A stretch of DNA of 50,278 bases from a virus (IMGVR_UViG_2595698871_000001:173443-223720), one strand, 5' to 3'. Numbered from the stretch's first letter, positions 129 to 29,694 are shown. Notes: generated from the letters alone by a model not told the origin. A program made the numbers and translations.

Positions 129-129
129 C

Positions 130-1399: not shown

Positions 1400-1623
1400 T
1401 CGACTACGTCTACCGCAAAGACCCGCGCGGCAGCGACTACGGCGCCCAGCGGATGGACCTGAGCGAAGCCCTGGCGGTGGTCGCCGCCGAGAAGCAGGAC
1501 TTCCTCATTCGCTTGGTCGAGGTCCTGCACGAGAACAACCTCCTGCGCGACGCCGACGTGCTGGAGTTGCTCGGCAAGGGCTGGGGCCTGGAGGCCTACG
1601 ACGTCCTGCACGTAGACGATTGA
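1396..1623 (+). CDS. hypothetical protein
   Basis: ATGA overlap; its stop overlaps the TTGACA promoter. Confidence 0.7.
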   Translation: MIDYVYRKDPRGSDYGAQRMDLSEALAVVAAEKQDFLIRLVEVLHENNLLRDADVLELLGKGWGLEAYDVLHVDD

Positions 1624-1677
1624 CAACACTCTCGCGCCAGCATAGAAGCCTTCTCGACGACAACGAAGGAGGCTTCC
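1620..1677 (+). promoter_or_regulatory. sigma70-type promoter, class A (operator in spacer) plus conserved leader and SD
   Basis: TTGACA 1620-1625, 17 bp, TAGAAG 1643; CAACAC-N6-GCCAG; CGACGACAAC 1655-1664; GGAGG. Confidence 0.8.
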
Positions 1678-2049
1678 GTGAAGCTCGCGACCCAAGACCG
1701 GACCGATCCCCGCCTGAACGCCGACTACCGCCTGATCAAGGCGGTCTTCTACTACGGCGGCCCGGCCGAGTACCCGATCCACCTGGACGAACGCTGGAGC
1801 GCGGTGACGCCGGCCCAGGTCGAGGACCAGATTTCGGTCCTCTGCCGCGACCTCGCCAAATGCTCGGGCAACACCCTGGCGCCGGCGACCTTCTACGAGC
1901 GCGCCAAGCTGAGCTTCGCCGAGGTGCCGCCGGTGTCCGACGAGTTCTGGGGCCTGATCTCCGAGACCACCAAGCAGAACATCCTCGCCCTGAAGGATCG
2001 CTTCACCGTCCACGGCAGCGGCTTCATGCTCTCGTGGGCCAAGGTCTGA
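1678..2049 (+). CDS. hypothetical protein
   Basis: GTG start after GGAGG. Confidence 0.75.
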   Translation: MKLATQDRTDPRLNADYRLIKAVFYYGGPAEYPIHLDERWSAVTPAQVEDQISVLCRDLAKCSGNTLAPATFYERAKLSFAEVPPVSDEFWGLISETTKQNILALKDRFTVHGSGFMLSWAKV

Positions 2050-2387
2050 TGTGCCATCTGGCTCACACCCAGGGATGCCGCGAGTGCCCTTTCAAGCGCA
2101 CCGCCGCGCCCGGCTGGCTCGGAGCCGACACCCCCGAGGGCTTCCTGCGCGCGACCATGTCGGGTAGCGTCCAGATGCCCTGCCACATGACCGTCGACTA
2201 CGACGCCGACGACTGGCGCGAGCAGGCGGCCGATGCGCCGTTCTGCGCCGGCGCGCTGATCTTCCTCAAGAACATCTGCAACCTGCCGCATGATCCGAAG
2301 ATCGTCGCGGCCCGCGCGCAGGTCGAACCCAACCGCGAGGACTACTTCGCCCGCCCGGACGAGTTCCTGGCCCATCACGGAGGCTGA
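2049..2387 (+). CDS. Cys/His-rich putative Zn-binding protein (DUF6283-like)
   Basis: CRECPF...GWLG...MPCH...FCAGAL; start ATG 2049 overlaps upstream TGA. Confidence 0.6.
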   Translation: MCHLAHTQGCRECPFKRTAAPGWLGADTPEGFLRATMSGSVQMPCHMTVDYDADDWREQAADAPFCAGALIFLKNICNLPHDPKIVAARAQVEPNREDYFARPDEFLAHHGG

Positions 2388-2388
2388 C

Positions 2389-2667
2389 ATGACCAAGCCC
2401 GCCCAGTACCGCGTCCGAGCCTTCACGCGCCGTCTGCCGCCCCAGCGCGGCTATCTCGACCACGACATCGTCCACATGCAGGTCCTGGAACTCAAGCGGT
2501 GGTTCGGCTGGCAGACCATCGACGAGGAGGTCGTGCCCGACCACGTCAAGATCAGCAGCGGCGCCCTGGGCGACACCGGCGGCTGGGTCTCGAAGTTCAC
2601 CAAGCTGGGGACCTTCGGCCGCGACGGCGTCTTCACCCTGCACCCGCACGTGGAGGCCAAGCTCTGA
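2389..2667 (+). CDS. hypothetical protein
   Basis: GGAGG then ATG 2389. Confidence 0.7.
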   Translation: MTKPAQYRVRAFTRRLPPQRGYLDHDIVHMQVLELKRWFGWQTIDEEVVPDHVKISSGALGDTGGWVSKFTKLGTFGRDGVFTLHPHVEAKL

Positions 2668-3089
2668 TGCGCCTGTTCCTGATCATCCTGGCGACCATCC
2701 TGTGGCTGGGCGACACCGCCCGCGCCCAGTCCTTCCGCCTGTCCCAGCCGCTCAACTACGGCAGCGACCTCCACTACACCGAGACGCGCGACGCCTCGGC
2801 CTCACGTGATCCGCTCAAGCGGGTGATCGCCGACCTGTCGCGCTCGCCGACGGTGACGATCGAGCGGGCCTGGACCTATGCCGAACTCGCCGGCGCCCAG
2901 ACCACCTGCGGCGAGATCATCCTCAACGGCCGCCACCAGAAGTTCGTCCTCCAGCAGGGGCCGAAGACCGCCGTGATCGGCCCCGCCATGCCCACCGAGT
3001 TCTGGAGCCTGGATGTCCAGGACTACCAGTTCCGCAACGCCGGGTGCCTGCGCGACCGCGCCGCCCAGATCATCCCGCCGAGGTTCTGA
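2667..3089 (+). CDS. putative secreted protein
   Basis: MRLFLIILATILWLGDTARA|QS resembles a Sec signal peptide with A-X-A site. Confidence 0.65.
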   Translation: MRLFLIILATILWLGDTARAQSFRLSQPLNYGSDLHYTETRDASASRDPLKRVIADLSRSPTVTIERAWTYAELAGAQTTCGEIILNGRHQKFVLQQGPKTAVIGPAMPTEFWSLDVQDYQFRNAGCLRDRAAQIIPPRF

Positions 3090-3412
3090 TGCCGATCGAG
3101 GTCCCCTGGAGCCCCCAGGACGCCGAACTGTGGTTCGGCTATGCCATGACCACCAGCGCGGGCCTATGGTTCCTGATCGGGCTGTTCTTCGCCGTCAAAG
3201 ACTATGACAAGTGGAGGAGCGGCATTGAGGGGCCGGTCAGCCGCGCGATCTACGCCATCGTGGTGGTGATCGCCGGCACGGGTTTCGGGATGCTGTTCTT
3301 TCTCCCCCTTCTCGCCATGGCCCTGACCGCCCTCGCCCTGGGCGGCCCGATCCTCCTCCTGGTCTGGAGCCTTCGTTCTCTTGGCCGTCTTGTGTTGACA
3401 AAGGCAGGTTAG
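3089..3412 (+). CDS. putative membrane protein
   Basis: Two to three hydrophobic segments; TGATG coupling. Confidence 0.65.
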   Translation: MPIEVPWSPQDAELWFGYAMTTSAGLWFLIGLFFAVKDYDKWRSGIEGPVSRAIYAIVVVIAGTGFGMLFFLPLLAMALTALALGGPILLLVWSLRSLGRLVLTKAG

Positions 3413-3451
3413 CCGGCCTAGAACGTCATCGACGACAACAAAGGAGGCCCC
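3381..3451 (+). promoter_or_regulatory. sigma70-type promoter, class B (inverted operator upstream of -35)
   Basis: TTGGC-N6-GTGTTG 3381-3397; TTGACA 3395-3400, 18 bp, TAGAAC; CGACGACAAC 3430-3439; GGAGG. Confidence 0.8.
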
Positions 3452-3808
3452 ATGCCGCTGTATGATTTCCCGACCGGCCCGACCACGATGGAAGACGTCG
3501 AAGCGTTCGTCGCCGGCGCCCAGGCGGTGGTCAACGCCCAGATGGCGAAGACCTTCCCGAACGTGAGCCCGCCGGTCCTGACGATCGAGCCGGTGCGCGC
3601 CAACAGCCAGTTCGCCAAGATCGTGGCGAGCGACCGCGCCCAGCGCTCGGTCTGGGCGTTCGTGCGCCTGGAGAACGGCCTGATCTACAAGCCTTCCTCG
3701 TGGAAGGTCCCGGCCAAGCACGCGCGCGGCACCATCCACTCCGCTGGCCACGGCGCCGAGTACGTCGACTGGACCGGCCCGCGCTACATCAGGGACATGC
3801 GCCCGTGA
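3452..3808 (+). CDS. conserved phage protein of unknown function
   Basis: SVWAFV...G.IYKPSSWKVPAK..RG motif typical of a widespread phage family (recognised by eye). Confidence 0.75.
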   Translation: MPLYDFPTGPTTMEDVEAFVAGAQAVVNAQMAKTFPNVSPPVLTIEPVRANSQFAKIVASDRAQRSVWAFVRLENGLIYKPSSWKVPAKHARGTIHSAGHGAEYVDWTGPRYIRDMRP

Positions 3809-4065
3809 GCACCTTCTCCGTTCTCCTGTCGCTTTACGACGAGCGTCGGCTCTACGTGGTCGAGGCGCAAAACGCGATCAACGCCGTGGCCTATGCCAAG
3901 CGGATTGCGGCGGCGCATGACGACGCGGGCTCCAATTGGCAGTTGGAAGTCGCCTTCCACGGCGCGTCCAATCTCGCCATGGCGGGCTCGGGCCTCAAGG
4001 CCATCGACCTGCGCGCGACCGCTCACGAGACCGTTCCGCACGCTCAGCGTGGAGGTGGCTGCTGA
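3805..4065 (+). CDS. hypothetical protein
   Basis: GTGA overlap. Confidence 0.55.
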   Translation: MSTFSVLLSLYDERRLYVVEAQNAINAVAYAKRIAAAHDDAGSNWQLEVAFHGASNLAMAGSGLKAIDLRATAHETVPHAQRGGGC

Positions 4066-4607
4066 TGCCTGACCTGATCGACGCCCGCGCCATCAATGTC
4101 GACCCCTTCGCGATCGTCACCGATCGCCTGGAGGGCTCGATCACCCTGGTGCGGCTGGCCGAGGCCGGCCGCTACCGCCACGGCGGCGCGCTCCTCTACT
4201 TCCGGGGTCGCCAGATCGACACGGGTCTGAAGGGCGTCTCCTACGTCTACGATGACGAGACCAACGCCAGCCACCTCGAATACTGGGGCGGCTACGAGGA
4301 TCGCATCCTCGCGCGCTTCGCCTCCAAGGACGACGCCGTGAAGGCCCTGCACGATGGGCTGGCGGCGCGCGCCGAGGTCGACATCCTGGTCAAGCAGGCC
4401 CAGGCCATGCTCCAGGCCCTGACCGACCTGCGCGACCGGCGGTTCAAGGAGACCGTCCAGGCCCAGGAACGCGACGGCGTCCAGCGCGATGGCTGCGAGG
4501 TCTGCAACGGCTCGCGCGGTGGTGTGCCCGGCAACGAGAACGTCGTCGACGGCAAGGTGGTCTGCGACTACTGCCACGTCGACATCATGGACGCGAGGAA
4601 GGGCTGA
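4065..4607 (+). CDS. hypothetical protein with C-terminal CxxC...CxxC Zn finger
   Basis: CEVC...CDYC; TGATG coupling. Confidence 0.7.
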   Translation: MPDLIDARAINVDPFAIVTDRLEGSITLVRLAEAGRYRHGGALLYFRGRQIDTGLKGVSYVYDDETNASHLEYWGGYEDRILARFASKDDAVKALHDGLAARAEVDILVKQAQAMLQALTDLRDRRFKETVQAQERDGVQRDGCEVCNGSRGGVPGNENVVDGKVVCDYCHVDIMDARKG

Positions 4608-4828
4608 TGGGCTCCTACACCTACTGCCCCAACCGCACGTGCGGCGCCGGCCTCGGGCCGCCCTCGATCCGTGAGGTCGTGGAGAACGAGCGCAAGTGCC
4701 CGCACTGCGGCGGCGACGTGCCGGTCTACGACTCCCTGGCCGACGTGCTGGAGCGCATGGAGGGCAAGATCGAGGAACTCCAGGAGGAGGTCCGCGTGCT
4801 GCGCGAAGGAGACGACCTTGGGTCTTAG
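4607..4828 (+). CDS. small Zn-ribbon plus coiled-coil protein
   Basis: CPNRTC...CPHC, then heptad LERMEGKIEELQEEV. Confidence 0.7.
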   Translation: MGSYTYCPNRTCGAGLGPPSIREVVENERKCPHCGGDVPVYDSLADVLERMEGKIEELQEEVRVLREGDDLGS

Positions 4829-5174
4829 AAAAATCCCGCCCGCCCATTCGTGGTTCTCGGCGATGGCCTTCCGGACGACGTTCAAGAAGCCGAGCCACGA
4901 AGAGCGTCTCAAGCGCCTTCAGGCGGTCCAGGCCGCCCGGCTCTCGGGCTCTGAACTGCGCGACCCGCTGATGAAGAAGCTGGTGCGCGATGGTCTCGTG
5001 CGCCTGCACCGGCCGGCCAACGCCGAGTTCTACAGGCAGTCCAAGGGCGGCTTCATGAAGCGCACCCAGGCCTTCCTTACGCCGGCCGGCGAAGCCTATC
5101 TGGCAGACCCGGCGCATCATCCCGTTCCGAAGTCGGAGCGCACCGAGAAAGCCAAAGGGGTTCGGGGCAAATGA
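4818..5174 (+). CDS. hypothetical protein, possible winged helix
   Basis: TTG start after GGAG; MKKLVRDGLV...LTPAGEAYL. Confidence 0.55.
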   Translation: MGLRKIPPAHSWFSAMAFRTTFKKPSHEERLKRLQAVQAARLSGSELRDPLMKKLVRDGLVRLHRPANAEFYRQSKGGFMKRTQAFLTPAGEAYLADPAHHPVPKSERTEKAKGVRGK

Positions 5175-5620
5175 TAAACTGGAAGGACCCCTTCGGCTTC
5201 GAAGCCCGCCGCCTCGCGCGTGAAGCGCTCTGGGAAGAGCAGGCCAAGGAAACGCGGGCGCGCAACCTCAAGCGCGCCCAAGAAACCGGCACGCACTGCA
5301 TCAAGCAGGTCGCCGCCGATCGGTTCTTCGTGCTGCTGCGCGACACGAACGGGCGGTATCGGGCGATCCAGCGGGACGGCAAGGTCGCGGGGCAGTACCC
5401 CTGCAACGCCCACGTCATCCGCACCCTGGAGCAGGCCAAGGACTTCGGGCGCATCGCTGAGCGCAACTTCCGCGAGGAGGTGGCCGAGGAGGTCGAGCGC
5501 CTGACCAGCCACGAGAACTTCTACCACCCGACCGAGTACGAGCCCGTGCCGGCCAAGGAGGCGCGCGCCGAGGACATCGTCTTCGTCGAGGCGGTCTCCA
5601 CGTGCTGGAGTCGCCGCTGA
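5171..5620 (+). CDS. hypothetical protein
   Basis: ATGA overlap. Confidence 0.65.
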   Translation: MINWKDPFGFEARRLAREALWEEQAKETRARNLKRAQETGTHCIKQVAADRFFVLLRDTNGRYRAIQRDGKVAGQYPCNAHVIRTLEQAKDFGRIAERNFREEVAEEVERLTSHENFYHPTEYEPVPAKEARAEDIVFVEAVSTCWSRR

Positions 5621-5817
5621 TGGAGACCCGCGCAGACGCCGTCCAGGCCGTTGCCAAGGCCCTCTACGAGCGTCAGTGGGCGCGCGGCGGGCAAGTCGTC
5701 CCGCCGCCTTGGGAGACCTTGCCGCCTCGGTTCAAGACGCCGTTCCTGGAGACGGCCGAGCTTTGCGTCGACATCATCATCGAACACGTCAGGAACACCA
5801 GCCATGAACCGTCGTAA
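5620..5817 (+). CDS. hypothetical protein
   Basis: TGATG coupling. Confidence 0.6.
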   Translation: METRADAVQAVAKALYERQWARGGQVVPPPWETLPPRFKTPFLETAELCVDIIIEHVRNTSHEPS

Positions 5818-6445
5818 TCTCCTGCTGGGCGCCGGCGCGGCCGTCATCGCCGCCGGGGTCGCCCAGGCCAAACCGGTTCACGTGTCGGAGGTCAAGCCGA
5901 CGACCTACACGTGGTACTCCAGCTACGAGACGGGCATCCGCCAGCGCGACACCCACGACACCCGCTACACGATCCGCTGGGAGCAGGGCGCCATGCAGCA
6001 CCCGCACGCTGACATCGTGCGCAAGTGGGTCCGCGAGACCATCGACAGCGGCTACCTCTACTGCTTCGGCGACATCCACTGGATGGATCGCAAGGTCCGC
6101 CTGGAAGACGTCCACATCGTCATCCGGCCGGGCAAGAAGGTCTGGAACCACGTCACCGGCTACACCGACGAGGAGGGTCTCCAGATCGAGGTCAACGAGG
6201 CTGGTGCGGTCTTCGCGCCGTTCGGCCTCGCCTCGACCCATGGCCTGACCTACGTCCGCGAGTCGATGCGCGACACCTATTATGTCCGCAAGCCGTACCT
6301 GCGCTACGACGAGGAGCGCGAGCTTCGCTTCGCCCTGGGCGACGACCCGCAAGGCTACCGCGCGCCGAACTCCAAGGTCGGCTTTGACGACCGGATGTGG
6401 ACCGAGGTCCTGAAGGACCTGGAAGCCAAGAAGGCCCAGGCCTGA
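5804..6445 (+). CDS. putative Tat-exported protein
   Basis: MNRRNLLLGAGAAVIAAGVAQA|K: twin-arginine motif, h-region, AxA site. Confidence 0.7.
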   Translation: MNRRNLLLGAGAAVIAAGVAQAKPVHVSEVKPTTYTWYSSYETGIRQRDTHDTRYTIRWEQGAMQHPHADIVRKWVRETIDSGYLYCFGDIHWMDRKVRLEDVHIVIRPGKKVWNHVTGYTDEEGLQIEVNEAGAVFAPFGLASTHGLTYVRESMRDTYYVRKPYLRYDEERELRFALGDDPQGYRAPNSKVGFDDRMWTEVLKDLEAKKAQA

Positions 6446-6942
6446 TGATCCGCTCCCGCAACGAGCCGCCCGAGGTCACCTCCGGCAAGATGCAGGAGCG
6501 GTGGGCCGCCCAGAGAGCGAGCATCCATGGGATGCTCTGCCTACCGCACACCCTGAACGCCAACTGGCAGCAGGTCAGCGCGATGATCTGGGCGCACTGC
6601 GACGGGCGGGTGGTCGGCGAGTGGCAGGACCGCCCGGTGCCGGGTTGGACAGCCGAGCATATCCAGGCGCCGTTCGACATCTGCATGGTTCAGGACCCGA
6701 ACGCCAAGACCCTCCAGGACGCCGATCTGGCGCTGCGGATGATCACCACCCTCCTGCCCGACGCGGCCCTTGAGATCAAGAAGTGCAAGGGGCGTGACGG
6801 CGAGTGGGAGACGCTGATCGACACCCGTTGCGCCCAGGTCGCCAAGCATCGGGGGATGATCTGGGGCTTTGGCCCCGGCATCGCCCTGGCGACGTGGCGC
6901 GCCTACTTCAGCTACCTCCAGAAGGAGCCCACCTATGACTGA
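6445..6942 (+). CDS. hypothetical protein
   Basis: TGATG coupling. Confidence 0.65.
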   Translation: MIRSRNEPPEVTSGKMQERWAAQRASIHGMLCLPHTLNANWQQVSAMIWAHCDGRVVGEWQDRPVPGWTAEHIQAPFDICMVQDPNAKTLQDADLALRMITTLLPDAALEIKKCKGRDGEWETLIDTRCAQVAKHRGMIWGFGPGIALATWRAYFSYLQKEPTYD

Positions 6943-7156
6943 CATCTTCGACGAGGTCGAGCGGCGGCTGAACCGCAAGCGTCCGACCTTCTGGCTTCAC
7001 CGGATCGCGATCGTGATCATCGTCGTCATCGGCCTGCTGGTCGTCGCCGGCGCCGCCATCCAGGTCTTCAATCCGACCCTGGCGACCCAGTGGCAAGCTC
7101 GTCAGGACGCGGCCTACGACCGCGCCTACGAGGAAGCCCGGCGGCGGGGCGAGTAA
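6935..7156 (+). CDS. single-pass membrane protein
   Basis: IAIVIIVVIGLLVVAGAAIQVF; GGAG SD. Confidence 0.7.
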   Translation: MTDIFDEVERRLNRKRPTFWLHRIAIVIIVVIGLLVVAGAAIQVFNPTLATQWQARQDAAYDRAYEEARRRGE

Positions 7157-7638
7157 TGGCCGGCCCGCAGTACAACTGGGAGCCGGCTTCGACCGCCGAC
7201 GGCGTCAAGCTGACCGAGCACGTGATCCGGGGCGAGATCGTCCCGATCTGCGTCGGCGCGTCGCTGCACGCGATCGAGATGCACGCCATCATGGGCGAGC
7301 GGCTCTACCGGGCCTTTGGGACCATGTCCGGCGACGCCGACTGGACCCAGGCCGAGATCGGCACGCCCCAGGCCCATCCGCTCGACGGTAAGGACCTCAA
7401 CGCCCTGGACTACCACACCAGGGTCCGCGAGGAGTACCGCCGCGACATCGCCACGGCCGGCGGCCGGCATCTGATGATCTGCCGCAAGACCGACGATCTC
7501 CAGGAACTGCTCGCCCTGATCCCGATGGACCTGCGACGGCGTCACGAGATGGCCAACCTGATCACCCTGGTGGCGCGGATGCTGCTCATCGAAAACACCG
7601 CGCGCACCCTCTCCGACTCCAGCCTGAAGCGCTTCTGA
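7156..7638 (+). CDS. hypothetical protein
   Basis: TAATG coupling. Confidence 0.65.
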   Translation: MAGPQYNWEPASTADGVKLTEHVIRGEIVPICVGASLHAIEMHAIMGERLYRAFGTMSGDADWTQAEIGTPQAHPLDGKDLNALDYHTRVREEYRRDIATAGGRHLMICRKTDDLQELLALIPMDLRRRHEMANLITLVARMLLIENTARTLSDSSLKRF

Positions 7639-7639
7639 C

Positions 7640-8182
7640 ATGACCTCCCACCGCCTCGACTTCACCAGCAACGATCTTTGGCCGCCCAAGGTCGACTACG
7701 AGATGAAGAAGCTGCGCTACGACACTGCGCTCGACGCGCTGGAGATCGTCCATCCCAAGAACCGCCTGGGCAACCGGGTCGACGTCTCCCACATCTGCTC
7801 CTACCTGATGAACGGGCGCGTCAAGGGCATCCTCGACCACATCGCCAGCACCGGCGTCGAGGACCCGCGCGAGCAGACCTTCAAAATCCTGCGCATCCTG
7901 GAAAACCGGGGCATGATCGCCAACAGCGGGGGCGACTGGACGCTGACCGCGACCGGCGCGATTTGGCATCTGGTGGCGGACAACCACCCCTCGGGCTGGG
8001 CCGAGCAACAGGCCCTGCTCTACGACATCCGCCTGCAATGGTGGGCGGGACACGAGATCGTCGCGGCCATCAAGGAGACGCCGTACTTCCAGATGCGGCC
8101 CAAGCACGGCGCCGTGCCGACCATCGCCTTCGACCTCTCGGCCCTGCAACAACCGCTCGACGGGTGGAACGGATGGCGCTGA
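7640..8182 (+). CDS. hypothetical protein, possible winged helix
   Basis: ILRILENRGMIANSGGDWTLTATG. Confidence 0.65.
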   Translation: MTSHRLDFTSNDLWPPKVDYEMKKLRYDTALDALEIVHPKNRLGNRVDVSHICSYLMNGRVKGILDHIASTGVEDPREQTFKILRILENRGMIANSGGDWTLTATGAIWHLVADNHPSGWAEQQALLYDIRLQWWAGHEIVAAIKETPYFQMRPKHGAVPTIAFDLSALQQPLDGWNGWR

Positions 8183-8712
8183 GCGAGGAGGCCTGGGACA
8201 GCCTGATCCTCGACCTGCGCAACGCCGTCGAGGCCGAGGACCGCGAGGCCTGGGACGAGGCGATCCAGGCCCTGGAGAACGCCTTCGACGAGCATGTCGA
8301 CGGCCCGCTGGAGACCCACCCCAACACCCTGGCCTGGAAGAAGAGCGCCGACGAACGCAAGCGCTTCCTGGCGGGCTGGTCGTACTGGGGTAGCGGCGCC
8401 CGCGATGTGCCAGCCGAGTACAAGGGCGACATGGTCTTCAACCGGGGCCGCAGCGCCGCCGCCACCGCCCAGGACATGAGCGGCCTGCACCGGACCCTGG
8501 CGTCCTGCAAGCATCCGCAGTCCTACCGGATCGAAGGCGGCGACAATCTCCACCTGCCGCGCTACCCGGCGGTCTATGGCTCCTACGAGGTCCACATCTG
8601 CCGCCTCTGTCGCGGGTGGAAGACGATCGGCCACGGCGAGCGCCAATGGCACGAGGGGCCGTATTTCGACGCCTACGAGAAGGCGATGCGTGAGGAAGAG
8701 GAGCGCTGCTGA
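8173..8712 (+). CDS. hypothetical protein with C-terminal Cys/His cluster
   Basis: ATG 8173; SCKH...HICRLCRGW. Confidence 0.65.
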   Translation: MALSEEAWDSLILDLRNAVEAEDREAWDEAIQALENAFDEHVDGPLETHPNTLAWKKSADERKRFLAGWSYWGSGARDVPAEYKGDMVFNRGRSAAATAQDMSGLHRTLASCKHPQSYRIEGGDNLHLPRYPAVYGSYEVHICRLCRGWKTIGHGERQWHEGPYFDAYEKAMREEEERC

Positions 8713-9404
8713 TGCTCTACGTGTTCGGGGACATCCACGGCCGCATGGACCTGCTGGAGAAGGCGCGCCACGCCATCCGTGTACGCGGCGACGCCACGCG
8801 CATGATCTTCCTGGGCGACTATGTCGATCGCGGCCCGCAGAGCCGCGAGGTGGTCGAGGCCGTGATGGAGCTTCACCGCCAGGGCGAGATCGCCCTCAAG
8901 GGCAACCACGAGCAGATGATGGTCGATAGCTGGCGGATCGCCAACTACGGCGCGCTCTCCAAGATGTGGGTCAGCAACGGCGGCAAGCAGACCCTGAAGT
9001 CCTACGGCGCCGGCGACAACGCCTGGAACGCCCAGTGGGACATGATCCCCCAGGAGCATATCGACTGGATGGATGGCCTGCCGACCATGCACGTCACGCC
9101 CGGCCGGGTCTTTGTGCATGCCGGGCTGATGCCGGGCGTCCCGCTTGAGCAGCAGGACGAGGAGTGGACCCTGTGGATCAGGGATCGCTTCCTGCTGGGC
9201 AAGCCGGGCGACTTCACCCACCACGTGATCCACGGCCACACCCACACCGTGCCGGTCTTCAAGGAGGAGCCGTCCGAGCCGGAGCTTCTGCCCCACCGGA
9301 CCAACCTCGACACCGGCGCGTTCTTCACCGGCGTCCTGGGCGTGGGCGTCTTCGATCCGGACGAGACGGCCGGCCCGGTCGAGGTGCTCAAGATCACGGT
9401 GTGA
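8712..9404 (+). CDS. calcineurin-like metallophosphoesterase (lambda PP/PphA-type phosphatase family)
   Basis: All signature motifs: GDIHG, GDYVDRG, GNHE, HAG, HGHT, NLDTG. Confidence 0.92.
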   Translation: MLYVFGDIHGRMDLLEKARHAIRVRGDATRMIFLGDYVDRGPQSREVVEAVMELHRQGEIALKGNHEQMMVDSWRIANYGALSKMWVSNGGKQTLKSYGAGDNAWNAQWDMIPQEHIDWMDGLPTMHVTPGRVFVHAGLMPGVPLEQQDEEWTLWIRDRFLLGKPGDFTHHVIHGHTHTVPVFKEEPSEPELLPHRTNLDTGAFFTGVLGVGVFDPDETAGPVEVLKITV

Positions 9405-9406
9405 CG

Positions 9407-10015
9407 ATGTCGTTTCTGGACCGCATGCGCGAGTACATCACGGCCGACCTGAAGATCGTTGAGCACCTCACCCGCCGGTTCAGCCGGAAGCCGGAGGAGC
9501 CCGTGGCCGGGATCGCGCCCCAGCCGATGACGCAGGCGCCTCAGGTCGCCGGTGGTAGCAGCGGCGTGTCGCACTTCTACTACCCAGGCGTTGGCGGTGG
9601 GGGCTCTGTGAGCGCCAGCGGGGGCAGTGGAGGCGGGTCCGGCGGCACCCTGATCTACAACGGCACATCGGGGCAGGTTCTGGCCTACGACGGCCGGAAC
9701 GCGGCCTGGAGGCCCGCCCCGGTCCCCACGAAGCTGAAGGCCGACAAGCCGGCAGGGAGCTTCAAGGACCTCAACGCGACCGAGGAGGCGGTGGTCCACA
9801 ATGTCGCGCAGTACGAGGGGACCGAACTCGTGCGCGAGAAGGACGGGACGTTCTCCTATTGCCGCAAAGGCGTGGCCCTGGGCAAGGACCGCGTTCGATC
9901 CCGCACGGTCAACGTGTTGATCAAGAAGAAGTTTCTGGACGTGATCGAGTTCGGGGAGCGCGGCGAGGCCCTGGTCTGCGGGCTCGGCTCCAACATCAGG
10001 GTCCACGGCCGCTAG
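9407..10015 (+). CDS. hypothetical protein with Gly-rich linker and C-terminal family-A domain
   Basis: GGGGSVSASGGSGGGSGG; VRSRTVNVLIKKKFLDVIEFGERG aligns with the 27-31 kb paralogues. Confidence 0.65.
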   Translation: MSFLDRMREYITADLKIVEHLTRRFSRKPEEPVAGIAPQPMTQAPQVAGGSSGVSHFYYPGVGGGGSVSASGGSGGGSGGTLIYNGTSGQVLAYDGRNAAWRPAPVPTKLKADKPAGSFKDLNATEEAVVHNVAQYEGTELVREKDGTFSYCRKGVALGKDRVRSRTVNVLIKKKFLDVIEFGERGEALVCGLGSNIRVHGR

Positions 10016-10022
10016 AAAGTGT

Positions 10023-10078
10023 TTGACAACACTCTCACGCCAACATAGAACCTCCTCGACGACAACGAGGAGGGCCGC
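10023..10078 (+). promoter_or_regulatory. sigma70-type promoter, class A
   Basis: TTGACA 10023-10028, 17 bp, TAGAAC; CAACAC-tctcac-GCCAA; CGACGACAAC 10057-10066; GAGGAGG. Confidence 0.85.
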
Positions 10079-10498
10079 ATGGCTTACGCAATTCCCGACC
10101 TGAGCACCTTCACCTTCACCGACCCGTCGGTGGAAAGCTTCGCCAGGGCCATGATCTCGATGATCGAGGCCAACCAAGCGATCATCGACGAGTTCGCCAA
10201 GAGCCTGATCGAGAACCCCGTGCGCGCTCTGGAGCGCAGCCTGTCGGTCAAGCTGGCCGCCGTCCGTCAGAACGCGGCGAAGGAAGCCCTCGAACAGACC
10301 CTGGACACGCTCCTGCACGGGACCGACAAGACCTGGGCGGTGATCAAGCTGGAACTCCAGCAAGCGCTCCTGCATCACGTGGTCTACCACGCGTCGCGGT
10401 CGTCGCGCTCGACCAACGCCGAGGCCAACGACATGGAGCGCTTCGACCTGCAAGCCAAGGCCGAGTTGCTCGACCGCGTCATGAAGGGCCGCTTCTAA
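10079..10498 (+). CDS. hypothetical protein
   Basis: ATG after promoter and SD. Confidence 0.8.
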   Translation: MAYAIPDLSTFTFTDPSVESFARAMISMIEANQAIIDEFAKSLIENPVRALERSLSVKLAAVRQNAAKEALEQTLDTLLHGTDKTWAVIKLELQQALLHHVVYHASRSSRSTNAEANDMERFDLQAKAELLDRVMKGRF

Positions 10499-10740
10499 TG
10501 CGCGGCGTCGAGGTCAACGAGAGCTATCAGACCGAGCAGCGCTCGTTCGATGGCCAACTCGCCGGCAAGTACGGCGCTGCCTCGGGCGGCCCGGACCTGA
10601 CCCGTGAACAGTGGCAGGCGATGCAGCGGGCCGACCGCAAGCGCTTCGCCGGCTTCATCATGGGCGCCTTCGTGTTCATCTTCTGCCTGACCTGGGTGAT
10701 CAACGATCTGACCCACTTCGGCGCGGCGCTGCCGTTCTAA
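10498..10740 (+). CDS. small membrane protein
   Basis: TAATG coupling; FAGFIMGAFVFIFCLTWVI. Confidence 0.65.
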   Translation: MRGVEVNESYQTEQRSFDGQLAGKYGAASGGPDLTREQWQAMQRADRKRFAGFIMGAFVFIFCLTWVINDLTHFGAALPF

Positions 10741-11117
10741 TGAAGACGCTCGACGAACGCATCGCCGAGGCTATCGCCACTCCTCGTCCGGCCTGGATCG
10801 AGAAGAAGGGCGATCGCTTCCACGTCATCACCAAGGGCGTGCTGTTCCCCAACACGCGCAACGCCCTGCACAAGACCTGGAGCCGCCGCGCCGGCGCCCT
10901 GGCCTGCATCCAGCAGGACGGCTACACGTTGCTGGAGGGCGATTGCCCGTTGCCCGAGGTGACCCAGGCCCAGCGCGACGCCTACCAGTTCCAGGGCGCC
11001 GAGCGGCGCGAGGCCGTCGAGATGCTGAGCCGCGAACTGGGCATCCACCAGGACGAAATCCGCCGCGCGCTGCGCAACCTCGAAGGCAAGGGCCTGATCC
11101 AGTTCGGCGGGCGCTGA
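10740..11117 (+). CDS. protein with C-terminal winged HTH
   Basis: MLSRELGIHQDEIRRALRNLEGKGLIQF. Confidence 0.7.
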   Translation: MKTLDERIAEAIATPRPAWIEKKGDRFHVITKGVLFPNTRNALHKTWSRRAGALACIQQDGYTLLEGDCPLPEVTQAQRDAYQFQGAERREAVEMLSRELGIHQDEIRRALRNLEGKGLIQFGGR

Positions 11118-11124
11118 TAGCAGC

Positions 11125-11195
11125 TTGGCGTTTGTGTGTTGACAGCGCCAGTCCGGTTCTGTAGACCTCTGCTCGACGACAACGAGGAGGCCCCC
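11125..11195 (+). promoter_or_regulatory. sigma70-type promoter, class B
   Basis: TTGGC-N6-GTGTTG 11125-11141; TTGACA 11139-11144, 17 bp, TAGACC; CGACGACAAC 11174-11183. Confidence 0.85.
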
Positions 11196-11402
11196 ATGCC
11201 GCATCTGAGCAAACAGTCCTACAGCTTCGACTACACCAGCGACGCCCTGGCGGCGGCCGGCGAGTTCGAGGCCCTGACGACCGAGTTCTACCGCTACGAG
11301 ACGCGCTACCTCTACGACGCGGCGCGCGCGATCGTCGGCGTCGAGGTCCGCGTCATGGACGAGGACGGCTTCTTCGTCGGCTACGTGGCGGGCGAGGCCT
11401 AA
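11196..11402 (+). CDS. hypothetical protein
   Basis: ATG 11196 after GAGGAGG. Confidence 0.75.
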   Translation: MPHLSKQSYSFDYTSDALAAAGEFEALTTEFYRYETRYLYDAARAIVGVEVRVMDEDGFFVGYVAGEA

Positions 11403-11405
11403 GCC

Positions 11406-12010: not shown

Positions 12011-12036
12011 AATTTTAATCTGGAGAGGGCCTTAAG

Positions 12037-14070: not shown

Positions 14071-14082
14071 GAAAGGAAGACC

Positions 14083-14499: not shown

Positions 14500-14506
14500 T
14501 CGGCTG

Positions 14507-14567
14507 TTGACAACACTCTCGCGCCAACATAGAAGGGCCTCCGACGACAACGCCGGAGGCCCTTTTC
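14507..14567 (+). promoter_or_regulatory. sigma70-type promoter, class A
   Basis: TTGACA 14507-14512, 17 bp, TAGAAG; CAACAC-tctcgc-GCCAA; CGACGACAAC 14542-14551. Confidence 0.85.
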
Positions 14568-15262: not shown

Positions 15263-15275
15263 GGAGGACCCCGAC

Positions 15276-15746: not shown

Positions 15747-15817
15747 TTGGCGCGAGAGTGTTGACAGCAGCGTCCTGACGCCATAGAACCCTCTCGACGA
15801 CAACGAAGGAGGCCCCG
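15747..15817 (+). promoter_or_regulatory. sigma70-type promoter, class B
   Basis: TTGGC-gcgaga-GTGTTG 15747-15763 (exact reverse complement of class A operator); TTGACA 15761-15766, 17 bp, TAGAAC; CGACGACAAC 15795-15804. Confidence 0.85.
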
Positions 15818-16443: not shown

Positions 16444-16445
16444 GC

Positions 16446-17969: not shown

Positions 17970-17979
17970 GAGACCCGTC

Positions 17980-18824: not shown

Positions 18825-19156
18825 CCGACTATGACGCCTGCCTGACCAACTGGGTCATCTGCCTGACGCCGATCCCGGTCATCGTCCGGGGCGACGCCGT
18901 GCCCGAGCCGGGCGTGGTGCTCGTCGGCGAGATCATGCAGGACCGCAAGAAGCGCTGGCCGGACGGGCGTCTCGTCCACACCTCGGTGCTTCTGAGCGCG
19001 CGGGAGTTGATCAAGCCGGGCGAGGTCGTGCGCACCCTGCGCAGCCACTACCTCCTGGGCCGACCCGCCGAGGAGATCACCCTGCGCCATAGCCTGGGCG
19101 CGATGTTCGCCCAGGTCGTCATTCAACCGCTTGACAACACTCTCGCGCCAACCTAG
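18821..19156 (+). CDS. conserved phage protein of unknown function
   Basis: GEI.QD...RWPDG..VHTS...V.T..SHY.LG motif; GTGA overlap. Confidence 0.65.
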   Translation: MTDYDACLTNWVICLTPIPVIVRGDAVPEPGVVLVGEIMQDRKKRWPDGRLVHTSVLLSARELIKPGEVVRTLRSHYLLGRPAEEITLRHSLGAMFAQVVIQPLDNTLAPT

Positions 19157-19223
19157 AAGGGTCGTCGACGACAACGCCTGTCCGAAATTTGTACACAGAT
19201 TTCGGACATAATAGGAGGTCCAG
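19131..19223 (+). promoter_or_regulatory. sigma70-type promoter, class A, with extra leader palindrome
   Basis: TTGACA 19131-19136, 17 bp, TAGAAG; CAACAC-tctcgc-GCCAA; CGACGACAAC 19166-19175; TGTCCGAAAT-N10-ATTTCGGACA 19179-19208; AGGAGG. Confidence 0.85.
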
Positions 19224-19655: not shown

Positions 19656-19657
19656 CC

Positions 19658-19876: not shown

Positions 19877-20265
19877 GCAAGCCGTCGATCGCGGTGGTGG
19901 GGTTCGTCTCCTCCACGCCCAACTTCTTCGAGATCGTCGACCTCAAGGTCGTCGACGACAGCCGCCGGCCCGGCGACGGGCGCATGTTCGCCCGCGACGC
20001 CGACACGGTGAACCCGTGCCCGCCCTGGGTCGAGTTCCAGATCGTGCTCGGCGTCTTCGACACCTACGAGCAGGCGGCGGCGGCGCGCGAGAAGTCCCGC
20101 GCCGACTACAAGGCCGCCGGCGCCGAGGTCGAGAAGACCAACGGCGAACTGATGCGCGCGACCCGCGCCTATGAAGCCGCCATCCTCGCCCACAACGAGG
20201 CCAAGACCGAGCAGCGGCGCGCCAGCCGGCAGGCCTTCCTCGGCACCCCCACCGACTACCGCTAG
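19873..20265 (+). CDS. hypothetical protein with C-terminal coiled coil
   Basis: ATGA overlap. Confidence 0.7.
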   Translation: MSKPSIAVVGFVSSTPNFFEIVDLKVVDDSRRPGDGRMFARDADTVNPCPPWVEFQIVLGVFDTYEQAAAAREKSRADYKAAGAEVEKTNGELMRATRAYEAAILAHNEAKTEQRRASRQAFLGTPTDYR

Positions 20266-21594: not shown

Positions 21595-21664
21595 TTGGCT
21601 GCGATGTGTTGACAAGGCTGCGCGGCCTCCTGTAGAAGACCCTCGACGACAACAGGAGGCCCTC
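21595..21664 (+). promoter_or_regulatory. sigma70-type promoter, class B
   Basis: TTGGC-N6-GTGTTG 21595-21611; TTGACA 21609-21614, 18 bp, TAGAAG; CGACGACAAC 21644-21653. Confidence 0.85.
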
Positions 21665-22490: not shown

Positions 22491-23015
22491 ATGGGCCTGA
22501 CGGGGTGCAGCTTTGCGCTCCTGACGGCCGGCTCGGTCGCCTTCGCGGTTGACCGTGGGGGCAGGGCGCTCAAGGCGAGCGGCCTGCTCCTCCTGGCGAC
22601 CTGGGCGTTCTCGGTGACCGTCGGCAAGGTGCTGGTCGCCGCCTACAAGCCCTACATCTACGCCTGGGTCGACGGCATGTTCGCCGGCGCCATGGGCGTC
22701 ATGATCTCCGCCCGCTACCAGCGCTGGCGCGCCGGGCTCTTCGCCCTGGCGATCCTCCAGATGGGGCTCCATCTGGCCATGCTCGGCTACTGGGATTTCA
22801 CCCTGGCGGCCCGCCGGCTGCACGTGCTGTCGCTCAACATCACCTACGCCCTGGAACTCTTCGTGCTCACGATCGGCGCGGTGGTCTACCGCCCTGGCGC
22901 GGACGACGATATGCCGGTGATCATGGAGGTCCAGCACCACCTCGTGGGGCAGGACGACGGCACGCTGCTCGATTGGCTTGAGTGTGTTGACAAAGCCGGA
23001 CGGCCCGTCCTATAA
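22491..23015 (+). CDS. polytopic membrane protein
   Basis: About five hydrophobic segments. Confidence 0.7.
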   Translation: MGLTGCSFALLTAGSVAFAVDRGGRALKASGLLLLATWAFSVTVGKVLVAAYKPYIYAWVDGMFAGAMGVMISARYQRWRAGLFALAILQMGLHLAMLGYWDFTLAARRLHVLSLNITYALELFVLTIGAVVYRPGADDDMPVIMEVQHHLVGQDDGTLLDWLECVDKAGRPVL

Positions 23016-23043
23016 CCCCCTCGACGACAACGAGGAGGCCCCC
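22973..23043 (+). promoter_or_regulatory. sigma70-type promoter, class B
   Basis: TTGGC-N6-GTGTTG 22973-22989; TTGACA 22987-22992, 18 bp, TATAAC; CGACGACAAC 23022-23031. Confidence 0.85.
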
Positions 23044-25203: not shown

Positions 25204-25748
25204 ACATCCTGCAAGACCTCCTCGCCCAGCCCGAGCACATGACCGACGCCTATGCGTCCTGCATCTCGATGCGCATCGGCGACACCCTGGCCAGCCCCAA
25301 GCGCCAGGACCTCTTCGACCTCGCCACCACGCTGACGAGCATCTCCCACGCCATGCTGGCCCAGGCCCCGCAGGCGACCCGCGACGCCATCATCCACGAC
25401 AAGGCCGACATGGGCGATCCGATCATGGCCGCCTTCCGCCTGGGGCAACTCTCGATGGCCGGCGAGATCATGGGCTACGAGGCGACCCGCCGCGCGGACG
25501 ACGACATAATCGACGTGGTGAAGGCCAACCTCGGCGTGCTCTCCGACATCCGCGAGGGCCGCAACACGCCGTCGGAACTGGCGATGCAGTTTGGCATGAC
25601 CGGCAAGGAACTGAAGGTGCTGGTCCGGGTGCTGGAGCACAAGGGCCTCGTCGTTACCGTCACCAGCAGCACGCCGGGCGTCTACGAGGCGCGCCTGACG
25701 CCGCTCGCCCATTCGATCCTCGACATGCTGAAAGAGAAGGCCGCATGA
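25200..25748 (+). CDS. protein with C-terminal MarR-like winged HTH
   Basis: TPSELAMQFGMTGKELKVLVRVLEHKGLVV...RLTPLAHSIL. Confidence 0.75.
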   Translation: MNILQDLLAQPEHMTDAYASCISMRIGDTLASPKRQDLFDLATTLTSISHAMLAQAPQATRDAIIHDKADMGDPIMAAFRLGQLSMAGEIMGYEATRRADDDIIDVVKANLGVLSDIREGRNTPSELAMQFGMTGKELKVLVRVLEHKGLVVTVTSSTPGVYEARLTPLAHSILDMLKEKAA

Positions 25749-27675: not shown

Positions 27676-27959
27676 TGCCCAAGCTCTGGAACAAGCCCGT
27701 CCCGCTGAAGGCCCAGCCGATCCCCTACCAGATCGAGCGCTATCTGCTCAACCACCGCGACGTGCGGCTGGTGCGCGGACGCGACGGCTGGTTCCGACTC
27801 CAGGGCCGCACGGGGGTCAACCACTTCCGCAGCGTGCCAGGGTCGGGGCGCTACTCGGCGCGCACCGCCATGCTCTGCGTCGACAGCCTGTGTACGGTCG
27901 AGTCGTTCGACGAGTGCAATCGGCCCGACGTGATCGGCCTGCATCGGGACGTCATCTGA
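27675..27959 (+). CDS. paralogue array, family A
   Basis: YSARTAMLCVDSLCTVESFDECNRP. Confidence 0.65.
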   Translation: MPKLWNKPVPLKAQPIPYQIERYLLNHRDVRLVRGRDGWFRLQGRTGVNHFRSVPGSGRYSARTAMLCVDSLCTVESFDECNRPDVIGLHRDVI

Positions 27960-28324
27960 TGTGGTGCGATCCCAAGGTCCGCGCCCGGCGCCTGATGCTG
28001 CCGCGCAACGACGGCAAGGTGCGCTTCAACGGCACCGACTTCCCGTCGCTGATCTGCGCGGCGACGGCCTCGGTCCTGCTCGACAAGATGTGGAAGAGCT
28101 TTGACCAGCACCCGATCCTGCTGCGGCGGTCCGACGGCGATTTCGACCTCGACTGCGATCCCATCGGCCTGGAGGAGGACCGGCTGACGTTCGAGGCCGA
28201 CATCGTGATCTCCCGGCGCATCGCCATGAACTTGGTCGAACTGGGCTACCTACTCGTCGTGACGAGCACCGAGCGCGGCGCGCCCCAGCGCCTGGAAGTG
28301 GCCGACGTGCCGAGGCGGACCTGA
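27959..28324 (+). CDS. paralogue array, family A
   Basis: ISRRIAMNLVELGYLLVVTSTERGAP. Confidence 0.65.
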   Translation: MWCDPKVRARRLMLPRNDGKVRFNGTDFPSLICAATASVLLDKMWKSFDQHPILLRRSDGDFDLDCDPIGLEEDRLTFEADIVISRRIAMNLVELGYLLVVTSTERGAPQRLEVADVPRRT

Positions 28325-28605
28325 TGGCGAGGTCCCGTGTACGCGTCAGGATCACCCAGCTTCGCTACCTGGAGGTGCGTGCGAAACTCCAGCGCGGGCC
28401 GTGGAAGCATCTGATCCGCGCCTATCGCGGCTGGCGCTGCTACAATCCCGCCACCGGCACGACCGATATGGCCGAGCGCTACAGCGACGACACGGTGCGG
28501 CGCATGGTCGCAAGCGGGACGCTGGACGTCCACGAGTTCGACGAGGACGGCGTGGTCCAGGTCTATCGCCTGGGCAAGGCCTTCGACGGCTGGAGGTCGT
28601 CATGA
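28324..28605 (+). CDS. paralogue array, family A
   Basis: YSDDTVRRMVASGTLDVHEFDEDGVV. Confidence 0.7.
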   Translation: MARSRVRVRITQLRYLEVRAKLQRGPWKHLIRAYRGWRCYNPATGTTDMAERYSDDTVRRMVASGTLDVHEFDEDGVVQVYRLGKAFDGWRSS

Positions 28606-28955
28606 AGTACAAGTGGATGGCCAACCCCTACTACGCCCAGATAGGGTTCTCGCCCCATCAGGCGCGCTACTGGGACGTCGAGAAAGCCATGGTCCTCAAC
28701 CTGTGGGACGACATCGGCCGCGTCGGCGGGCTCGAAGACCCCAGCCACTGGAAGCTTGTCTGGAGGCCCTTGCAAGTGGGCCGCGAAGGGCGATATGTCC
28801 TGGTCACCGCCCAGGCTGGAATCGCCTACCCCATGGCGTACCCAAAGGGCTATCGCGGCGCGATCGTGGAGATCGCCGCCGATGAGGACTGCCGGCTGCG
28901 GCCGACGGTGCGGGACGAGACCGGGCGGATTCTGGAGTATCGGGGCGTCCAGTGA
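28602..28955 (+). CDS. paralogue array, divergent family A
   Basis: FSPHQARYWDVEKAMVLNLWDDIGRV. Confidence 0.6.
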   Translation: MKYKWMANPYYAQIGFSPHQARYWDVEKAMVLNLWDDIGRVGGLEDPSHWKLVWRPLQVGREGRYVLVTAQAGIAYPMAYPKGYRGAIVEIAADEDCRLRPTVRDETGRILEYRGVQ

Positions 28956-29575
28956 AGAGCGATTGGCGCGAGACCTTGGCGGCGGCGTTCGACCGGCCCC
29001 TCCCCGTGGAGGAGCCGGTGGCGGACCCCTATGCCTTCGATCCCAACGCGCCGCCGCTGATCCTCGACCTCACCCCGGACGAGAAGCTGTCGCTGACCGA
29101 GTACCGCTGGGCGGCGCTGGACGCGTCGGGCGCGGTCATGGGCGAATTCTGGGCGATCTCCCAGGCGGCCGAGGCGCTCGCCACCTTCCTCTACCCAGGC
29201 TTGGCCAGCTACGCGCGCGGCGGGCACACCGGCCGGCTCAAGGCCAACCGCCTGCGCCGGCTGAGCGAGGCCCAGAACTGGCGCTGCTGCTACTGCCATG
29301 GGCAGATGCGCATGCCCCACGACTGCGACGGCCCCAACGAGCCGGACATGGCGACGCTGGAGCACGTCACCCGCGTCACCGATGGCGGTGGTAGCACCTG
29401 GGACAACCTGATCGCCGCCTGCCAGACCTGCAACTCCCATCGCGGGAGCGTCATGCCCCTGAAGTGGTGGAAGCTGCGCCAGAAGCTCCTCCCCGATTGG
29501 CCGGCCTGCTCGCCGATCACCGACGCGGCCCGCTACGCCCTGCGCGGCTATGGGCTCTTGCGGCGCGGGTGGTGA
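28952..29575 (+). CDS. HNH endonuclease
   Basis: CCYC...ATLEHV...GG...NLIAACQTCNSHRG (CxxC-H-N-CxxCN). Confidence 0.88.
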   Translation: MKSDWRETLAAAFDRPLPVEEPVADPYAFDPNAPPLILDLTPDEKLSLTEYRWAALDASGAVMGEFWAISQAAEALATFLYPGLASYARGGHTGRLKANRLRRLSEAQNWRCCYCHGQMRMPHDCDGPNEPDMATLEHVTRVTDGGGSTWDNLIAACQTCNSHRGSVMPLKWWKLRQKLLPDWPACSPITDAARYALRGYGLLRRGW

Positions 29576-29621
29576 CAACCGTTTTTGGTTGTAAAGTGAG
29601 TTCACAACCTTTTTCGGTTGT
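29575..29621. promoter_or_regulatory. tandem palindromic operators ACAACC-N6-GGTTGT
   Basis: Copies at 29575-29592 and 29604-29621. Confidence 0.65.
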
Positions 29622-29694
29622 AGCGCGACTGTGTTGACGAGGTAACGAAAGCGGACTAAATGTAGGGCCTCGACGACAACGAAGGAGACCCCGC
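29620..29694 (+). promoter_or_regulatory. sigma70-type promoter, degenerate class B
   Basis: GTAGC-N6-GTGTTG; TTGACG 29634-29639, 17 bp, TAAATG; CGACGACAAC 29671-29680; GGAG. Confidence 0.7.

Follow-up and report, generated by a model that had tools for sequence, protein, structure and literature searches.

A bipartite element in two mirror-image positions about the -35 hexamer of promoters in phiCbK-like Caulobacter phages

Introduction

Why should one short sequence be found on either side of the -35 hexamer of a phage's promoters, in strict register with it but in opposite orientations? The question is raised by a stretch of 50,278 nucleotides (the window; bases 173443-223720 of IMGVR_UViG_2595698871_000001), which lies at the right end of a virus record of 223,720 bp that has direct terminal repeats. 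In this genome, here labelled Rogue, a bipartite element, CAACAC-N6-GCCAA (N6 standing for six bases), lies forward inside the spacer of some promoters (class A), and inverted upstream of the -35 hexamer of others, as TTGGC-N6-GTGTTG (class B); a third group lacks the TGGC arm (GTG-only). The comparisons reported here indicate that the element is very probably an operator.

Rogue is a phiCbK-like Caulobacter phage with a G+C content of about 66%. Its closest public relative is Caulobacter phage CcrBL10 (BL10; 89% identity, with 83% of a 15-kb query covered), after which phiCbK, Karma and others rank at about 78% for the same query. In Caulobacter cell-cycle research, phiCbK is the standard phage, and no publication was found on how its transcription is ordered. 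A search of the literature on phiCbK promoters, early genes and consensus sequences found neither these promoters nor the element described; the genome paper has a single mention of a promoter, its predictions being confined to terminators, while the 2023 time-course study leaves the control of phage genes open (PMC10688885).

The phages compared were Rogue, BL10, Karma and phiCbK, together with CcrColossus (Colossus, NC_019406.1). Positions are counted from the first letter of the window, unless given as genome positions, which refer to the whole 223,720-bp Rogue record; promoter offsets are counted from the first T of TTGACA.

Results

One element in two geometries

The two geometries about the -35 hexamer put forward in the original prediction are present in the window at the coordinates claimed, with four class A and five class B copies (Table 1). 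The copy at 1620 does end in GCCAG, and the copy at 15747 proved, when checked in the sequence, to be the exact reverse complement of the class A element. The class A element spans +4 to +20 and shares the CA of TTGACA, whereas the class B element spans -14 to +2 and shares its TTG, the overlap with the hexamer being 2-3 bp in both. Reflection about the fourth base of TTGACA maps every position of one class onto the other. From centre to centre, the arms are separated by about 11 bp, and therefore lie on one face of the helix.

The element is strongly over-represented, and it is concentrated at promoters. With at most one mismatch, CAACAC-N6-GCCAA has 10 matches in the window against 0.57 expected, a count reached by 0 of 100 shuffles; nine of the ten fall in promoter cassettes, and the tenth, at 39781 (one mismatch), is off-promoter. 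TTGGC-N6-GTGTTG has 14 exact matches across the whole Rogue genome, every one of them at a promoter, with about 0.1 expected from base composition, and the scan of relatives that had been proposed alongside this one recovered the same two classes in BL10, Karma and phiCbK.

A promoter catalogue was anchored on TTGAC(A/G), with up to two arm mismatches allowed in class B, such that a few entries are coding false positives. It contains 5 class A, 19 class B (about 17-19) and 4 GTG-only promoters in Rogue, 5, 18 and 3 in BL10, and 3, 21 and 2 in both Karma and phiCbK, or about 25 cassettes per genome. In phiCbK (JX163858.1), the class A promoters are at 38217, 24335 and 21849, all on the minus strand, class B includes 36701, 29352, 19378, 18009, 51259 and 55584, and the GTG-only promoters are at 67360 and 57096. 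Hence the predicted extent of 1620-29694 holds for the ten promoters there, but the system itself is genome-wide and on both strands, including the minus-strand replication module, within which lies the fifth Rogue class A promoter (genome 151746, minus strand).

Across 79 class B promoters of the four phages, TGGC at -13 to -10 is conserved at 84-97%, GTG at -3 to -1 at 95-100%, and N6 at 39-62%. The expectation of fixed arms around a variable N6 is thus borne out for most arm positions, but N6 is not free, having the consensus G-Y-G-A-G-A, and the initial position of TTGGC (-14) can be either T or C, with T in only 46%. Read in the class B direction, the core would be TGGC, six loosely constrained bases, and GTGTTG. 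In the 16 class A promoters, the spacer is invariant apart from N6 and the last base of the element, which is A or G, mirroring the T or C at -14 that is the sole variable arm position of class B. These mirrored constraints, down to one tolerated position, argue for one reader of both classes. A hypothetical promoter carrying both arms would be a 35-bp palindrome, and the Rogue class A promoter at genome 151746 approaches this double-armed form, with two mismatches in its upstream arm.

Reciprocal conservation and lineage history

Promoters of Rogue and Karma were paired by first-gene homology or by position, giving 14 class B and 3 class A pairs. Identity in class B and class A, respectively, was 0.53 and 0.38 far upstream, 0.89 and 0.33 in the distal arm, 0.74 and 0.44 in N6, 0.95 and 0.44 at GTG, 1.00 in both at the -35 hexamer, 0.58 and 0.96 in the spacer, and 0.85 and 0.94 in the -10 hexamer. 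The difference between arms and spacer in class B is highly significant (Fisher p = 8e-7), as is the identity of 49 of the 51 class A spacer positions under the class B spacer rate (binomial p = 6e-10). The element is therefore under reciprocal purifying selection in both positions. This pattern could not have arisen from repeat homogenisation, but can be produced by a sequence-specific reader; the restriction to promoters and the selection in both positions are as the protein footprint that had been predicted would give. Each class A copy also retains its own lineage-specific leader, and class A copies were therefore inherited vertically, rather than being overwritten by one another.

Several cassettes have kept their class. 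The orthologous gene of the 1620 cassette is behind a class A promoter in all four phages, the promoter orthologous to that at 3381 is class B in all four, and the 19131 cassette is kept in four phages. The 14507 cassette is kept in 20 phage records, with the first gene behind it varying among the four phages. GTG-only promoters also tend to remain so in orthologues, most clearly at Rogue 143201 and its three counterparts, and hence the TGGC arm is dispensable for a promoter, its presence being a property of particular promoters.

Two orthologous first genes have nevertheless swapped class between lineages. In one (Rogue 183465 and BL10 182339 versus Karma 183710 and phiCbK 29352), the promoter orthologous to the class A cassette at 10023 is class B in Karma and phiCbK. 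In the other (Rogue 189203 and BL10 188502 versus Karma 191530 and phiCbK 21849), the homologue of the first gene of the class B cassette at 15747 follows a class A promoter in Karma and phiCbK. The upstream flank of the 10023 cassette retains an out-of-register remnant of a class B arm, which suggests that class B was converted to class A at this promoter via a double-armed intermediate.

Distribution among hosts and other viruses

Exact TGGC-N6-GTGTTGAC had no match in four Caulobacter genomes. Allowing up to two mismatches, the 17-mer had 21 matches in 41 Caulobacter genomes against 13 for its reversed control, which is no enrichment, and a shorter pattern gave only codon-like near matches in the same 41. 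These genomes hence lend no support to a host transcription factor or to a generic host promoter feature. Pattern scans of viral contigs returned only single chance matches outside the clade. The best reading of this distribution is that the element represents an oriented operator specific to the phiCbK/Karma/Rogue/BL10 clade.

Colossus lacks the element, with merely four copies of GTGTTGACA present, and has two promoter families of its own. The first is AGAGTTGACAG(C/A)CGGC, in 16 copies, and the second, in 23 copies, combines a variable -35 with an invariant TTTCTTTACA(A) over the end of the spacer and the -10. The Colossus terminal repeat contains TTTCTTAACAA, which is related to its promoter families and carries CtrA boxes; the GAGTCACGTTT repeats of this phage are often palindromic pairs.

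Comparison with known site types

The promoters themselves resemble those of the host. The Caulobacter RpoD (sigma-73) consensus is a -35 of TTGaCgS and a -10 of GCtANAWC, 10-19 bp apart (PMC8144410), and all ten window cassettes have TTGACA(G), followed after a 17-18-bp spacer by (C/G)(A/C)TAGAA(G/C). A generic promoter scan that demanded T at the last -10 position detected none of them. A bottom-strand or bidirectional promoter on class A, or on the reverse of class B, was discarded, there being no -10 at the right distance.

The element matched few of the site types with which it was compared. An UP element would be an A/T-rich tract at -40 to -60 shared with strong host promoters, whereas this element is G+C-rich (TGGCG..GAGAGTG), and is not enriched in the host; a short A/T-rich patch does occur further upstream at some class B promoters. 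The CtrA box (TTAA-N7-TTAA) was rejected because the element consensus has no TTAA. A sigma-54 promoter (TGGCAC-N5-TTGC) requires GG and GC exactly 10 bp apart, and the TTG in TGGCG-N6-TGTTG is 2 bp too far from GG. MerR-type spacer operators are palindromes in spacers of 19-20 bp, whereas class A has a 17-bp spacer and a non-palindromic site. Binding by IHF was set aside as its spacing or sequence is unsuited, and no GANTC methylation site is present in the element. As at lambda OR2, however, the same site is found both at a position typical of activation (centre near -42) and at one typical of repression (within -35/-10). The number of cassettes per genome, and the exchange of first genes behind the 14507 cassette, resemble the promoter-early stem-loop (PeSL) cassettes of T4-type phages.

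Four 2023 RNA sequencing runs hold a Karma/phiCbK stretch as assembled contigs. These contigs end at 188946-188949 and 191527-191556 of Karma, but the loose ends run into other cassettes, and hence are breaks caused by repeats rather than transcript starts.

Candidate readers and TgrL

Candidate trans-acting factors were drawn from the CcrBL10 annotation, together with Pfam and PHROG scans. Two proteins encoded in the window have C-terminal winged helices (Table 1). That at 25239-25748 has no tblastn match in Colossus, whereas that at 10740-11117 has a Colossus homologue with 47% identity. A third winged-helix protein, at genome 149825-150157, was rejected as a required reader, being missing from phiCbK, which has the element. 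Further candidates are the A1-like protein on which Gill et al. comment (PMC3556154), considered here as a candidate DNA-binding protein, and a GcrA-like phage protein (Pfam GcrA, E 8e-21). Among the ten candidates scanned, none matched an AraC-type protein with two helix-turn-helix motifs, the only matches being winged-helix, XRE and GcrA.

The 20 phage records with the class A cassette are precisely those that encode the 25239-25748 protein, and likewise those that encode the GcrA homologue. As these records are the whole clade, the phyletic profile does not discriminate between candidates, and this co-occurrence signifies compatibility only, rather than identification.

TgrL, an early phage transcription factor of the XRE family, peaks by 15 min, and its published motif has the core CAAC(C), with G at +12 (PMC10688885). 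Its gene lies in an operon led by a class B promoter, and all five phages have homologues. It was rejected as the reader on its published matrix, derived from chromatin immunoprecipitation sequencing (ChIP-seq): the element scores at most 3.7 bits, whereas the best genomic sites score 10-14 bits, with at least 45 other sites above 10. TgrL may instead act at the variant cassette at the end of the predicted series. The copy at 29620 had been called degenerate, and it does deviate, but not through simple decay, as the second member of a pair of ACAACC-N6-GGTTGT palindromes stands in the place of its distal arm.

These palindromes (29575-29592 and 29604-29621) are perfect, 29 bp apart, and immediately precede the 29634 promoter. 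The genomes of Rogue, BL10, Karma and Colossus each have a single CAACC-N6-GGTTG pair with this spacing, while in phiCbK the second copy is N7. The half-site is the core of the published TgrL/XRE ChIP-seq motif, making the pair a good candidate for an operator of TgrL in the phage genome itself, a matter left unanswered by the time-course study (PMC10688885).

Cassettes of the window

The cassettes are about 75 bp long, consisting of TTGACA, a 17-18-bp spacer, TAGAA(G/C), about six bases, the leader CGACGACAAC, a ribosome site (GGAGG) and a start codon. The leader has ten exact copies in the window, all of them in cassettes of class A or class B form: four class A, five class B, and one variant (29620) with its distal arm swapped for another palindrome. 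Their order is A-B-A-B-A-B-A-B-B-B. The idea that class A operons are bracketed by inverted repeats, as this alternation might imply, is true of the window, but fails in Karma, where two class A promoters stand side by side.

Table 1. Promoter cassettes and candidate regulator genes of the window, in window positions
Feature	Position	Strand	Element	-35	-10	Leader	Start codon	Remarks
Class A cassette	1620..1664	+	CAACAC-N6-GCCAG 1624-1640	1620-1625	TAGAAG 1643-1648	CGACGACAAC 1655-1664	GTG 1678	17-bp spacer
Class B cassette	3381..3439	+	TTGGC-N6-GTGTTG 3381-3397	3395-3400	3419-3424	3430-3439	ATG 3452	
Class A cassette	10023..10066	+	10027-10043		10046-10051	10057-10066	ATG 10079	
Class B cassette	11125..11183	+	11125-11141	11139-11144	11162-11167	11174-11183	ATG 11196	
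Class A cassette	14507..14551	+	14511-14527		14530-14535	14542-14551	ATG 14568	
Class B cassette	15747..15804	+	15747-15763	15761-15766	15784-15789	15795-15804	ATG 15818	element the exact reverse complement of class A
Class A cassette	19131..19206	+	19135-19151		19154-19159	19166-19175	ATG 19224	26-bp near-palindrome 19181-19206
Class B cassette	21595..21653	+	21595-21611	21609-21614	21633-21638	21644-21653	ATG 21665	18-bp spacer
Class B cassette	22973..23031	+	22973-22989	22987-22992	23011-23016	23022-23031	ATG 23044	
Variant cassette	29575..29680	+	without distal TGGC arm	GTG + TTGACG 29634-29639	29657-29662	29671-29680	ATG 29695	ACAACC-N6-GGTTGT palindromes 29575-29592, 29604-29621
Candidate trans factor, 169 aa	25239..25748	+						C-terminal winged helix; weak Pfam MarR_2/HxlR matches; phrog_12757; binding putative
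Candidate trans factor, 125 aa	10740..11117	+						C-terminal winged helix; third gene of class A operon starting 10023; binding putative

The leader region may also fold as RNA. The bases between the -10 and the leader are complementary to the ribosome-binding region, with CGACGACAAC in the loop (for example at 1649-1675, 10052-10076 and 14536-14562), and these stems co-vary from cassette to cassette. If transcription starts about 7 nt past the -10, the 5' half of the stem would be present only in read-through RNA, and the ribosome site would be free only in promoter-proximal transcripts. Intrinsic-terminator-like sites in window positions 1-20000 are not above chance, with almost none on the coding (+) strand, and therefore the small operons probably read through into one another. 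Some GenBank records label the 14507-type copy a terminator.

After the 19131 class A promoter, the immediate ribosome site is replaced by the near-palindrome at 19181-19206 (TCCGAAAT..ATTTCGGA around TGTACACA), which is kept in BL10, Karma and phiCbK, and could be an RNA hairpin or a second operator.

Outside the window, a class B-type promoter at genome 53241-53300 (CTGGC-N6-GTGTTGACA, -10 TACAAC) lies in the tRNA/RNA region, lacks the CGACGACAAC leader and has no open reading frame called downstream; it is the only copy outside the early modules. Two GTGTTGACA boxes 33 bp apart occur at genome 166220-166258, in a divergent region beside the GcrA-like operon. After the first comes AGCGCCAA, which resembles a shortened arm of class A, and the layout is kept in BL10, Karma and phiCbK. 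On a related genome, GTGTTGACAG cassettes are found.

Discussion

What, then, reads an element that is maintained in two mirror-image positions? The explanation that we hold, if only by a little, to be the probable one is that a single oriented factor reads a 17-bp cis-regulatory operator, and that this factor is probably encoded by the phages, since the element is specific to the phiCbK/Karma/Rogue/BL10 clade. We infer both that a protein binds the element, and that it is the same protein in the two classes. Given an asymmetric site with arms separated by one helical turn, the reader would be an oriented unit, whether a two-headed monomer, a head-to-tail dimer or a heterodimer. The GTGTTG/CAACAC arm is always the one placed on the -35 hexamer, sharing TTG in class B and CA in class A. 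As this arm overlaps the hexamer in both classes, the factor would abut or compete with sigma region 4, from either side.

The promoters appear to be strong, near-consensus sites of the host RpoD (sigma-73) type, which should fire unaided at the start of infection, and the factor would therefore act after its own synthesis. Made early, it would later damp or modulate these early promoters, with shut-off by occlusion of the -35 hexamer at both classes the most likely outcome. In geometry, class B corresponds to lambda OR2 with respect to PRM, and class A to a spacer repressor. The class A promoters, with the site in the spacer, might constitute a tighter or differently timed subset.

Several points weigh against this reading. 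The two orthologous genes that swap class between lineages imply that the distinction between classes may matter little, and class A rests on only 3-5 loci per genome. The several candidate DNA-binding proteins are simply clade genes, inseparable by phyletic profile. Furthermore, the early promoters of T4 carry phage-specific extended consensus positions that are read by RNA polymerase itself, and therefore the lack of the element in host promoters is compatible with direct contact by RNA polymerase. A more ambitious version of the favoured explanation is itself unlikely: that the clade's factor, a winged-helix protein, or the GcrA homologue as a sigma-tethered cofactor retargeted from methylated GANTC to the element, reads it on either flank of sigma region 4, with effects on class A, class B and GTG-only promoters that are opposite or graded, thereby programming the early-to-middle transition over more than 100 genes.

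The alternatives differ in whether they assign the element to regulation, to the transcription machinery, to recombination or to RNA. It is similarly improbable that one regulator operates as a switch, activating class B from a centre near -42, by touching sigma region 4 or alpha, and repressing class A from the spacer, so as to define two temporal sets of accessory genes. Such a geometry matches textbook rules, and that of lambda OR2 at PRM and PR. One reader for both classes is what the mirrored constraints support, and the phiCbK time course resolved six temporal groups, including early, constitutive and early-middle (PMC10688885). Yet class B already has a perfect TTGACA and a good -10, such that activation is not obviously needed, and a class A promoter is found in the replication module, the genes of which are reported to be early (PMC10688885); together with the class swaps of two orthologous first genes, these observations are why the switch is rated below common damping. 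Moreover, an early regulator, TgrL, with its peak by 15 min, is in a class B-led operon, and the overlap of 2-3 bp with the -35 hexamer in both geometries means that both could simply be repressed. That the transcription machinery itself reads the element, either as an extended -35 or UP-like determinant, or as the site of a sigma-tethered cofactor such as the phage GcrA homologue, with phage promoters being favoured over those of the host, seems more doubtful still. A GcrA-like protein is present in the element-bearing clade and not found in the element-less Colossus (PMC3556154), host GcrA acts via domain 2 of sigma-70 with a promoter-proximal site (PMC4647560), and the distal arm, TTGGCG, is one base off the Caulobacter -35 consensus. 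However, the element is free of GANTC methylation sites, the search of host promoters did not find it, many clade genes share the co-occurrence of GcrA, and contact with alpha or sigma region 4 cannot account for a 17-bp inverted copy inside the spacer.

It is very improbable that the element has no regulatory function of its own, being either a by-product of recombining and homogenising cassettes, in the manner of PeSL shuffling, or the site of a tyrosine recombinase. The repeated cassettes, about 25 in number, the varying genes behind the conserved 14507 cassette and its counterparts, the breaking of RNA contigs at cassettes as repeats, and a tyrosine recombinase gene behind a class B promoter are all compatible with this idea; but homogenisation would carry the spacer too, whereas class B spacers diverge (0.58) while their arms are kept, and the lineage-specific leaders of class A indicate vertical descent with selection on the spacer. 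Nor were inverted segments seen between relatives, and A and B do not pair everywhere as inverted repeats, given the adjacent class A pair of Karma. Least credible of all is action at the RNA level, in which class A and class B copies in read-through transcripts would pair into processing sites. Up to 19 nt are complementary between 14507 and 15747, intrinsic terminators on the + strand do not exceed chance, making read-through likely, and the classes largely alternate in the window. Against this, class B copies are far more numerous than class A, the variation of N6 leaves just 5-6-nt complementary arms in most pairs, the alternation is lost in Karma, and the strict register with the -35 hexamer has no rationale in RNA.

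Carried by about 25 early promoters, the element divides promoters into three classes, open to comparison in existing RNA sequencing data on phiCbK at 0-90 min (GSE241057), and provides a 17-mer bait with which to find the regulator. It also represents a natural test of how the orientation of a site, and its side relative to the -35 hexamer, set the sign of regulation, and could yield small, regulated promoters with which to engineer Caulobacter.

The regulatory principle is known, but the architecture and the element appear undescribed. Lambda cI activates from about -42 and represses from the spacer through OR2, and the marbox is an oriented site used in two orientations. The TgrL/XRE regulators include an early transcription factor of the same phages, the motif core of which, CAAC(C), superficially resembles the CAACAC arm (PMC10688885); the low score of the element on the TgrL matrix, and the perfect CAACC-N6-GGTTG palindromes, which lie elsewhere and once per genome as a pair, separate the two. 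CtrA boxes at -35 hexamers are likewise bipartite sites with an 11-bp period, through which a winged-helix regulator both induces and represses (PMC9437464, PMC11264516), but they are TTAA-N7-TTAA, read by a host-encoded protein, and concentrated in phage terminal repeats. PeSL cassettes share with those described here the use of many standard early promoter modules at the head of small accessory operons, with the modules kept and the genes exchanged, although the present cassettes are GC-rich and of the Caulobacter RpoD type. To our knowledge, no oriented operator in two mirror-image positions has been described for PeSLs. The marbox of Escherichia coli, read by MarA, SoxS and Rob, is similarly asymmetric, degenerate and bipartite, being about 20 bp long with two elements approximately one helical turn apart; its orientation depends on its position, and its class II form overlaps the -35 hexamer. 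It differs in that MarA activates in both classes, in that no class lies inside the spacer, and in its sequence, which is unrelated to the phage element. The positional parallel is with lambda cI at OR2, where the edge of a 17-bp operator, centred near -42, overlaps the -35 by 2-3 bp, enabling activation via sigma region 4, while elsewhere the same protein represses over the -35 and spacer. The phiCbK-like phages differ in the form of the site: lambda employs palindromes, dimers, and one site for two divergent promoters, whereas here the element is asymmetric, present as one copy per promoter, and mirrored about the -35 hexamer.

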